Shown here: in pieces, positions 57,806 to 58,888 of the stretch | Position numbering within the stretch: the first letter of the stretch is position 1 | Layout: every line of letters begins with the position of its first letter | Sequence record: PQ666541 | Length of the DNA: 64,000 nt | Source: Shigella phage sb3 | Reading direction: 5' to 3' (one strand) | The notes under the pieces: model-generated | Database searches by the model: none | What the model was told of the DNA's origin: nothing | The model's input: only the letters and a program-made list of their open reading frames with translations | Position numbers and translations under genes: made by a program

Positions 57806-58327
57806 TTATCCTTTCATTGAAGGTGTAACAGTTGTTAAATACTTAATCATAGCTTCAGCTTCTGATTTTGATAATGAAATTTCTCCATTATTTTGACGAA
57901 TAGAAATAAAATCCGGATGACGGTCACCACCAGCTTTTAAAATACACATATAAGTATCAGTTTCATCTTCAATATCTGAAATGATTGAAGCAGTTCCACA
58001 TGAATGTGGTTTTTGATAAATCAATACAGCTTTTCTTCCACCGTTTGACTGTTCATAAACTTTTAACACATCAAACAAATCACTTCTTTTATCAATAGCT
58101 AAAATGTTATTTTCATCTTCAATGTTAAATCCTTCGGATACTTCATAAAGTGTCACCCATAAATCGCCAATATCAATGACAGCATTCACCTTTCCATGAT
58201 TTTCAAGAGCATTACAAATTTTCTTAATTTCATCATAACTCATTTTAATAATATCATCTCCTTGAATAAAGAAGATGTCATTTTTAAATTCAACACGAAT
58301 TAAACCACTTCCACTTGAAATAAACAT
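57806..58327 (-). CDS. Hypothetical protein; paralog of 58334-58888
   Basis: 173 aa; C-terminal (S/T)K.EA.A.K.YL..V.P(S/T)M motif shared with neighbour. Confidence 0.5.
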   Translation of the reverse strand: MFISSGSGLIRVEFKNDIFFIQGDDIIKMSYDEIKKICNALENHGKVNAVIDIGDLWVTLYEVSEGFNIEDENNILAIDKRSDLFDVLKVYEQSNGGRKAVLIYQKPHSCGTASIISDIEDETDTYMCILKAGGDRHPDFISIRQNNGEISLSKSEAEAMIKYLTTVTPSMKG

Positions 58328-58333
58328 ATTTCC

Positions 58334-58888
58334 TCACTTTGAAATCATAGTTGGAATGACAGAATCAAGATAAGTCTTTAGCGCAATAGCTTCGTCTTTG
58401 GTAAATGTGACAATATGCGATCGAAAATCGTCAATTTGACGAATAGTTAAGACATCTCCATCTTCATAGCATTTTGACACATTTAAAACAGTTTCATCAT
58501 TCTGATCGCAAGCGTTAGTAATAATAGCATTGCAATTTTTGAGCCATTTTAAACTATGTTTTCTTTCATTAGAATAATAAAAATATTTAATGTAAGTTAT
58601 AAAATTATCCCAATTATTAATTGATAAGCACATTGACTCACTTTTAATATTAAATCCTGGGCATGAAGAATAAAAATGAATTTTGTGCTCATCATTGATG
58701 CTTACTATTTTATCAGTATAAGGATATTCAATTTGGGTTAAATGAATGATTTCACTAGGCGTAAAATATAGCATATCGTCTTCTTGCGTCAAACGATACA
58801 TGTTATTTACTTTTTCTATAGCCAATTCACCAAAAAGCGGACTAACTTCTAGTACTAATCGTTTCATATTAATCCTTTTTATTGGCAT
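58334..58888 (-). CDS. Hypothetical protein; paralog of 57806-58327
   Basis: 184 aa; shared C-terminal motif. Confidence 0.5.
   Translation of the reverse strand: MPIKRINMKRLVLEVSPLFGELAIEKVNNMYRLTQEDDMLYFTPSEIIHLTQIEYPYTDKIVSINDEHKIHFYSSCPGFNIKSESMCLSINNWDNFITYIKYFYYSNERKHSLKWLKNCNAIITNACDQNDETVLNVSKCYEDGDVLTIRQIDDFRSHIVTFTKDEAIALKTYLDSVIPTMISK

Follow-up and report, generated by a model that had tools for sequence, protein, structure and literature searches.

We analysed a stretch of 64,000 nucleotides from Shigella phage sb3 (sequence record PQ666541; hereafter the window, to which all positions refer), concentrating on two adjacent open reading frames (ORFs) of 184 and 173 amino acids (aa) that a preliminary description had called tandem paralogs with a conserved C-terminal motif. 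The window is from a Tequatrovirus (T4-like) genome; positions 55000-62000 are 97% identical to phages KNP1, KNP5 and sb2, and ~95% identical to many others. Both ORFs are present on the minus strand as described, at 58334-58888 and 57806-58327, and both quoted motifs translate exactly. The length of 184 aa holds for the maximal ORF; we place the start of the protein at 58867 rather than 58888, giving a likely product of 177 aa, because homologues and the KNP5 annotation start there and the ATG at this position is preceded by the Shine-Dalgarno sequence AAGGA. The Shine-Dalgarno sequence of the second gene, GAGGA, overlaps the stop codon of the first. The two genes, under the names used below, and their domains are:

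58334-58867, minus strand: orthologue of MobD.1 (T4 Y05I), 177 aa from its probable start (maximal ORF 58334-58888, 184 aa)
58559-58867, minus strand: MobD.1 N-terminal domain, predicted repeats I and II, two beta-beta-beta-beta-alpha units
58337-58558, minus strand: MobD.1 C-terminal domain, predicted repeat III (Pfam T4_y05I_C), with the motif at 58346-58411
57806-58327, minus strand: MobD.1 paralog of the RB32ORF097c type, 173 aa (BLASTP and the same two Pfam domains)
58037-58327, minus strand: paralog N-terminal domain, predicted repeats I and II
57809-58036, minus strand: paralog C-terminal domain, predicted repeat III, with the motif at 57815-57880

Formal alignment of the two proteins, for which the preliminary description had named a non-significant result as refutation, gave 27% identity and 49% positives over 176 columns (BLASTP with compositional adjustment, E 8e-10). 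Both proteins match the same two Pfam domains with E-values of 1e-21 to 1e-41: T4_y05I_N (PF24449), where the 173-aa protein scores 116 bits and the 184-aa protein 141.6 bits against a gathering cut-off of 24.9 bits, and T4_y05I_C (PF24448), at 81.7 and 76.3 bits, against a cut-off of 27 bits. Both also match phrog_1502 (PHROG 1502), and T4_y05I_C is matched by all 34 of the 34 aligned family members. The C-terminal likeness that had been described is real, with 9 of 22 motif residues identical and many conservative changes, but the resemblance is not limited to the C-terminus, since the homology is full-length. The ratio of nonsynonymous to synonymous substitution rates (dN/dS) relative to KNP5 is ~0.23 for both genes, indicating purifying selection. 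The region is low in GC (28-32%), and only short exact nucleotide words of 10-12 nt are common to the two genes, as would suit a chance or compositional resemblance in AT-rich DNA, or an ORF that is no real gene. We give this explanation almost no weight and reject it: the alignment is significant with compositional adjustment, the Pfam matches are strong, hundreds of genomes keep both ORFs at 90-99% conservation, the ribosome-binding sites are good, and the dN/dS values argue against it. Judged from their sequences, MobD.1 and the 173-aa ORF are true tandem duplicates and belong to a single family of early proteins specific to phages, MobD.1/Y05I.

The 184/177-aa ORF has ~89% amino-acid identity to T4 MobD.1 (tblastn), and 58334-58867 has 91.7% nucleotide identity to T4 mobD.1 over 557 bp, with the same synteny, between the rI.-1 side and the nrdC.11 side. 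We assign it as the T4 mobD.1 orthologue, and the 173-aa ORF as a member of the same two-domain family that is not the orthologue; we equate mobD.1 with UniProt Y05I (Y05I_BPT4) because of where it lies in T4 and how Pfam names the family. T4 carries a single copy, with mobD in the paralog's place, whereas the sb3 stretch has two. The family and the pair are already catalogued in Pfam and PHROGs and are not a new system; new here are the proposal of three repeats laid out as in Pur-alpha, a structural interpretation of the motif, the displacement of the second copy by mobD, and the natural hybrid and stand-alone repeat genes. As had been described, the pair lies in an accessory stretch, which is a non-essential, variable early region of T-even phages, and its function is experimentally unassigned. 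Pfam labels PF24449 and PF24448 'putative transcription factor', which is only a label; fold analogy with single-stranded nucleic-acid binders presumably stands behind it. Searching the literature for 'mobD.1' gave an insertion-site label as the sole mention, 'y05I' gave nothing relevant, and nrdC.11/mobD turned up only the deletability of the T4 interval.

Two other names attached to the family do not hold. RefSeq orthologues in many Tequatrovirus genomes (e.g. AR1, RB3, RB51; T4 mobD.4) are called 'molybdopterin-guanine dinucleotide biosynthesis protein MobD', a label that appears to follow the T4 gene names mobD.x, in which 'mob' stands for mobile endonuclease; we reject identity with the molybdenum-cofactor enzyme, as there is no such Pfam or NCBIfam match. 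The paralog was labelled 'putative SSB protein' by one GenBank submitter (phage ZCEC14); an OB-fold SSB is likewise rejected, with no SSB Pfam or NCBIfam match and a predicted fold that is PC4-like, not OB. NCBIfam gave no match for MobD.1, the paralog or the product of the adjoining tudor-domain gene.

The pair is found in hundreds of sequenced Tequatrovirus genomes, which answers the proposal that its distribution across T-even phages be checked. Among ~504 phage records with matching flanks, ~422 have the pair arrangement seen in sb3 and 47 have the T4 arrangement; the paralog occurs in 447 phage records, mostly at 90-99% identity, and MobD.1 homologues occur in 726. The 173-aa paralog has no counterpart in the 48-61 kb region of T4, where one cassette is swapped:

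57347-58308, minus strand: 962 bp, consisting of the paralog from codon 7 on and the membrane-protein gene (blastn against T4)

Its counterpart in T4 is 808 bp long and carries the HNH homing endonuclease gene mobD. Alignment of the junctions showed that in T4 the mobD cassette takes over 19 nt into the paralog, whose ribosome-binding site and ATG are retained; the second junction is at the start of nrdC.11. Given this 19-nt relic and ribosome-binding site, the tandem pair is the older state, with mobD having displaced one copy and the membrane-protein gene in T4. The insertion site of MobD has been given as nrdC.11/mobD.1, with its target unknown (review PMC2988022). In T4 (L002 9210-9283, between mobD and mobD.1), the 19-nt relic opens a short frame, MFISSGTDMCYKCKAKLNETKNQ, that ends over the annotated mobD start; the Cys-x-x-Cys in this frame hints that the mobD frame was once longer or that the mobD start is mis-set. 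In phage T2, the mobD.1 homologue aligns in three pieces (H59, H144), several fragments of 50-63 aa carry the annotation of y05I C-terminal domain proteins (P0084 and the BFVD entries for T2), and the paralog-like gene is only 56% identical; T2 seems to have a decaying or divergent version of the locus.

Searched exhaustively with a profile, 1.84 billion protein cluster representatives yielded only 28 matches at E up to 0.001, and all family matches that were traced in the phage collection belong to T4-like phages; the MobD.1/Y05I family is phage-restricted. About 12 of these representatives, 67-87 aa long, consist of the C-domain alone; they share the motif and end in the signature T-K-x-E-A-x-A-L-V-x-Y-L-N-S-V-I-P-T-M-K. 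Another homology search (word-indexed, with the family alignment) gained full-length relatives and did not return the stand-alone C-domain proteins. In Moonvirus, as a tandem pair, and in Jiaodavirus, the genes of these C-domain proteins stand where the sb3 pair does, between rI.-1 and nrdC.11. The order in Citrobacter phage Moon is the tudor gene, two tandem C-domain genes, a homologue of the sb3 membrane protein, one more gene and nrdC.11; Klebsiella phage KpV477 fills this slot with a tandem of one DUF7189 gene and one C-domain gene. DUF7189 gives weak Pfam matches in 13/34 family members (best E 3e-5), and direct profile comparison of the KpV477 protein with the C-domain is also weak (E 0.006, probability 6%); a distant sister relationship between the two is suggestive only.

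One further family member, P0022, is a natural hybrid that joins the N-terminal part of MobD.1 to the C-terminal part of the paralog. Alignment of the hybrid to both genes located the crossover site:

58489-58498 (MobD.1) and 57958-57967 (paralog), minus strand: GATGAAACTG, a 10-nt word at the P0022 crossover

The hybrid is present on six metagenomic contigs, at least three of them independent, and on at least three the order is tudor gene, hybrid, membrane-protein gene, nrdC.11. A different exchange is seen in phage NBEco003, which, aligned to 58425-59160, has a divergent module that takes in most of mobD.1 and the place of the tudor gene (30-nt blocks have ~15-70% nucleotide identity), embedded in DNA that is otherwise 90-100% identical. 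Near-identity returns in the last ~30 codons of mobD.1, with the boundary inside the C-terminal motif codons.

Two independent AlphaFold2 (AF2) models, one for each protein, both predict three sheet-plus-helix units in series. The predicted local distance difference test score (pLDDT) is 85.3 for the paralog, modelled from a 34-sequence alignment, and 73.6 for MobD.1, where the N-domain exceeds 90 over most of its length; the predicted template modelling score (pTM) is 0.56-0.61. In the MobD.1 model, the C-domain consists of strands at residues 112-116, 120-124, 132-136, 147-153 and 156-162 followed by a helix at 164-177. The motif is predicted to correspond to the final strand of repeat III together with its amphipathic helix. 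When the profiles of repeats I and III were compared, the score was 30.8 (E about 2e-6), against a mean of 8.9 (sd 1.9, maximum 16.1) for 40 column shuffles; repeat I versus II and II versus III were not significant (hhalign, E 0.06-0.07). Structural matches of the PC4-like type included human PURA repeat III, PC4/Sub1, Borrelia Pur-alpha and the phage T5 PC4-like protein, and the best matches to a single unit are all obligate dimers. Foldseek against viral models (BFVD) found only family members and uncharacterised phage proteins, and a sequence search of the PDB with both proteins and the family profile found nothing meaningful. The predicted fold is that of the PC4-like superfamily (PUR/Whirly/PC4), and we propose that each protein consists of three beta-beta-beta-beta-alpha repeats of this fold in the arrangement of Pur-alpha.

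Our best explanation of the whole, to which we assign a probability of about 0.5, is that the two paralogs share this Pur-alpha-like three-repeat architecture, dimerise through repeat III and have a protein as their favoured partner. Repeats I and II would pack into an intramolecular domain, equivalent to T4_y05I_N, and repeat III (T4_y05I_C) would be a half-domain that needs a second copy to pair. The protein would work in dimeric form, as a homodimer or perhaps as a heterodimer of MobD.1 with the paralog, and the C-terminal motif would be the core of the repeat III interface and not a ligand-binding site. Such a dimer would present two N-terminal PUR-like platforms to a host or phage protein met early in infection, a likelier partner than single-stranded DNA or RNA. 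The paralogy, family membership, distribution, mobD replacement in T4, and predicted fold and repeat architecture are documented above; we infer that the dimer forms through repeat III, that heterodimers may form and what kind of partner is bound.

By analogy, the shared motif is probably a dimerisation element. Conservation in the family is highest in this motif, whose mostly hydrophobic sequence (E-A-x-A-L-V-x-Y-L-N-S-V-I-P-T-M) is what a buried interface would be expected to have, and the P0022 hybrid, in which a MobD.1 N-domain is joined to a paralog C-domain, shows that the parts are modular. A single repeat of this kind is highly unlikely to fold independently, the units forming inter-molecular dimers (review PMC7549692), and repeat III of Pur-alpha dimerises through intertwined helices (PMC4764581). 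Dimerisation through repeat III is the most economical reading because of the hydrophobic conservation, the existence of stand-alone repeat III genes and the published improbability of a stable lone repeat. An obligate heterodimer of MobD.1 and the paralog is rejected, since T4 and the hybrid-gene phages carry a single copy.

The C-terminal domain might instead fold back on itself or on the N-domain in a monomer, with the motif serving as a docking peptide or helix for an external partner. Consistent with this idea, a helix follows the C-domain sheet in the AF2 monomer models, with moderate confidence and no partner present, the pTM values leave the domain arrangement open, and the extreme C-terminus, V-I-P-T-M-K, is conserved to its last residues. 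We nevertheless consider a fold-back monomer very unlikely, given that C-domain proteins of 67-87 aa exist on their own, that the best single-unit structural matches are all obligate dimers, and that the published analysis makes a stable lone repeat improbable (PMC7549692).

The charge of the family bears on what the dimer would bind. All 23 of the 23 longer (multi-repeat) members, 22 of them full-length, have an isoelectric point (pI) of 4.1-5.8 and a net charge of -3 to -30, and P0061 (pI 9.2) is the one basic protein among those made up of the C-domain alone. The predicted N-domain strands have 1-5 Lys+Arg versus 2-6 Asp+Glu in 37 residues, and we found no positively charged beta-sheet surface, as judged from sequence on the predicted secondary structure and not from a computed surface. 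Pur-alpha, by contrast, binds through positively charged sheets (PMC4764581). Acidity throughout the family and the lack of basic character in the predicted sheets make nucleic-acid binding doubtful, and a protein partner may be slightly ahead. The opposing possibility is that the proteins are classical PUR/Whirly/PC4-type regulators that bind single-stranded DNA (ssDNA) or RNA, the N-terminal PUR-like domain binding or unwinding nucleic acid and repeat III bringing two binding domains together; early in infection, this would modulate transcription, replication or the fate of mRNA. Their three-repeat layout is the same as that of Pur-alpha, they are rich in aromatic residues (14-21), their genes lie in an early gene cluster, and the 'putative SSB protein' label was given to the paralog independently. 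The uniform acidity of the family, down to a net charge of -30, and the lack of a basic excess in the predicted strands weigh on the other side, as do conserved polar residues that are mostly Glu, Asp and Gln (e.g. in the T-Q-E-D-D and G-F-N-I-E motifs) and the lack of sequence matches to the PurA, Whirly and PC4 models. We regard such a regulator as possible but, on balance, doubtful.

Several observations weigh against our preferred reading of three-repeat paralogs that dimerise through repeat III and bind a protein. T4 gp32 and E. coli SSB are acidic overall, so net acidity is compatible with nucleic-acid binding. All structural evidence is from predicted models, PDB searches having found no solved structure of a family member, and the C-domain of the MobD.1 model is of low confidence (pLDDT 46-64). 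The Pfam models of PurA, Whirly and PC4 have no sequence link to any of the 34 members; for PurA there was no match at E up to 10 in the 34 members or at E up to 1 in the two sb3 proteins, and for Whirly there was no match. Dimerisation is proposed by analogy only, and a heterodimer cannot be obligatory, as MobD.1 homologues are found in 726 records versus 447 for the paralog. Most characterised PC4-like proteins bind nucleic acids (PMC7549692). Lastly, any role of MobD.1 would be conditional, because the T4 interval nrdC.11-mobD.3 is lost in viable genome-reduced T4 mutants (PMC9825161).

Pur-alpha (PURA) is described as the only known protein that joins intramolecular (type I) and intermolecular (type II) PC4-like domains (PMC7549692), and its structures include those of the Drosophila protein (3K44/5FGP for repeats I-II, 5FGO for repeat III). 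The MobD.1 family differs from it in having acidic rather than basic predicted sheets, an extra strand in the modelled third repeat, no Gly-rich or Gln/Glu-rich tails, and a phage-only distribution. Whirly/PBF-2 p24 and trypanosome MRP1/MRP2 are basic, form tetramers via other elements and are without a third repeat. Single-repeat PC4-like dimers (PC4/Sub1, Borrelia Bpur, YdbC and the phage T5 PC4-like protein) are basic ssDNA binders with no sequence similarity to the family; unlike them, the phage C-domain has its own signature, T-K-x-E-A-x-A-L-x-x-Y-L-N-S-V-I-P-T-M. SsgA-like proteins of Streptomyces (3CM1) have no sequence relation to the family, no third repeat and unrelated biology. In SsgA the same fold is used for protein binding, and it serves here only as a precedent for protein binding by a PC4-like fold. 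A bolder version of the protein-binding reading would see a phage-only, acidic Pur-alpha architecture in which repeat III homodimers or heterodimers, including those of the tandem single-repeat genes, capture a host protein, as a conditional host-takeover or counter-defence factor. We consider this version unlikely; if it were true, the family would be a second type of protein, after Pur-alpha, having PC4-like domains of type I as well as type II.

The practical value of these results is mostly in annotation: they put forward a hypothetical structure for proteins that hundreds of T-even genomes list as 'hypothetical' and that some records mislabel as a molybdenum-cofactor enzyme or SSB. The reference phage, T4, is atypical at this locus, having mobD where most relatives keep the paralog and the membrane-protein gene, and the pair arrangement is an endonuclease-free allele in which to seek the MobD target. 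If the three-repeat layout and dimerisation are true, the family would be a small, tractable model of PC4-like repeat evolution through duplication, stand-alone repeats and domain-swapped hybrids, and it might be an example of a PC4-like fold turned to a use other than nucleic-acid binding.

The whole block around the pair is on the minus strand, and its gene order follows from comparison with the annotated records of T4 and KNP5. The neighbouring features, listed in order of transcription, are:

61152-61733, minus strand: tk, first in the block
between tk and the small mobD.2a-mobD.5-type genes, minus strand: rI.1, rI and rI.-1
60186-60203, minus strand: terminator-like hairpin after rI.-1, a 7-pair stem then a T run (scan)
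between rI.-1 and the tudor-domain gene, minus strand: several small mobD.2a-mobD.5-type genes
58869-59147, minus strand: phage tudor-domain gene, adjoining the MobD.1 orthologue on its upstream side (Pfam Phage_tudor, PF24144, 134 bits)
57342-57803, minus strand: predicted membrane protein of 153 aa, directly downstream of the paralog (phrog_944 membrane protein)
56333-57345, minus strand: nrdC.11, nucleotidyltransferase, downstream of the membrane-protein gene
56312-56331, minus strand: terminator-like hairpin after nrdC.11, an 8-pair stem with 6 GC pairs, then a T run (scan)

The two hairpins are the probable upstream and downstream limits of the transcription unit that holds the MobD.1/paralog pair. 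Neither T4 late (TATAAATA) nor MotA-box middle promoter patterns were found between 57000 and 59600, and sigma-70-like sites were no commoner than in shuffled sequence. The stop codon of the tudor gene lies one base ahead of the MobD.1 ATG. The tudor gene has no counterpart in T4 and precedes y05I-family genes in Citrobacter phage Moon and on the hybrid-gene contigs; the conserved pairing may reflect a joint function. The preliminary description was right to note a membrane protein beside the pair, but the 153-aa gene lies downstream of it in the direction of transcription, not upstream. This gene is syntenic with the paralog across genera, its product having 29% identity (E 1e-23) to Citrobacter phage Moon gp105 in the same relative position, and it is kept beside the hybrid gene on the hybrid contigs. 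The C-terminal tail of the membrane protein, K-K-S-I-I-V-E-F-L-x-A-R-K-x-K-x-C-P, is conserved.

Further downstream, nrdC.11 (RlaP family) is split in sb3 into ORFs of 245 and 81 aa by a single missing A near 56658, whereas it is intact in T4 and KNP5 (336-337 aa); the split is either real, as a frameshift or pseudogene, or a homopolymer sequencing error. Five small ORFs of 57-79 aa around tk, of the mobD.2a to mobD.5 and tk.1/tk.2 types, all match Pfam DUF7438; with them, this early region has another tandem paralog set, larger than the MobD.1 pair:

59361-59534, 59524-59718, 59721-59960, 61735-61923 and 61920-62105, minus strand: DUF7438 ORFs
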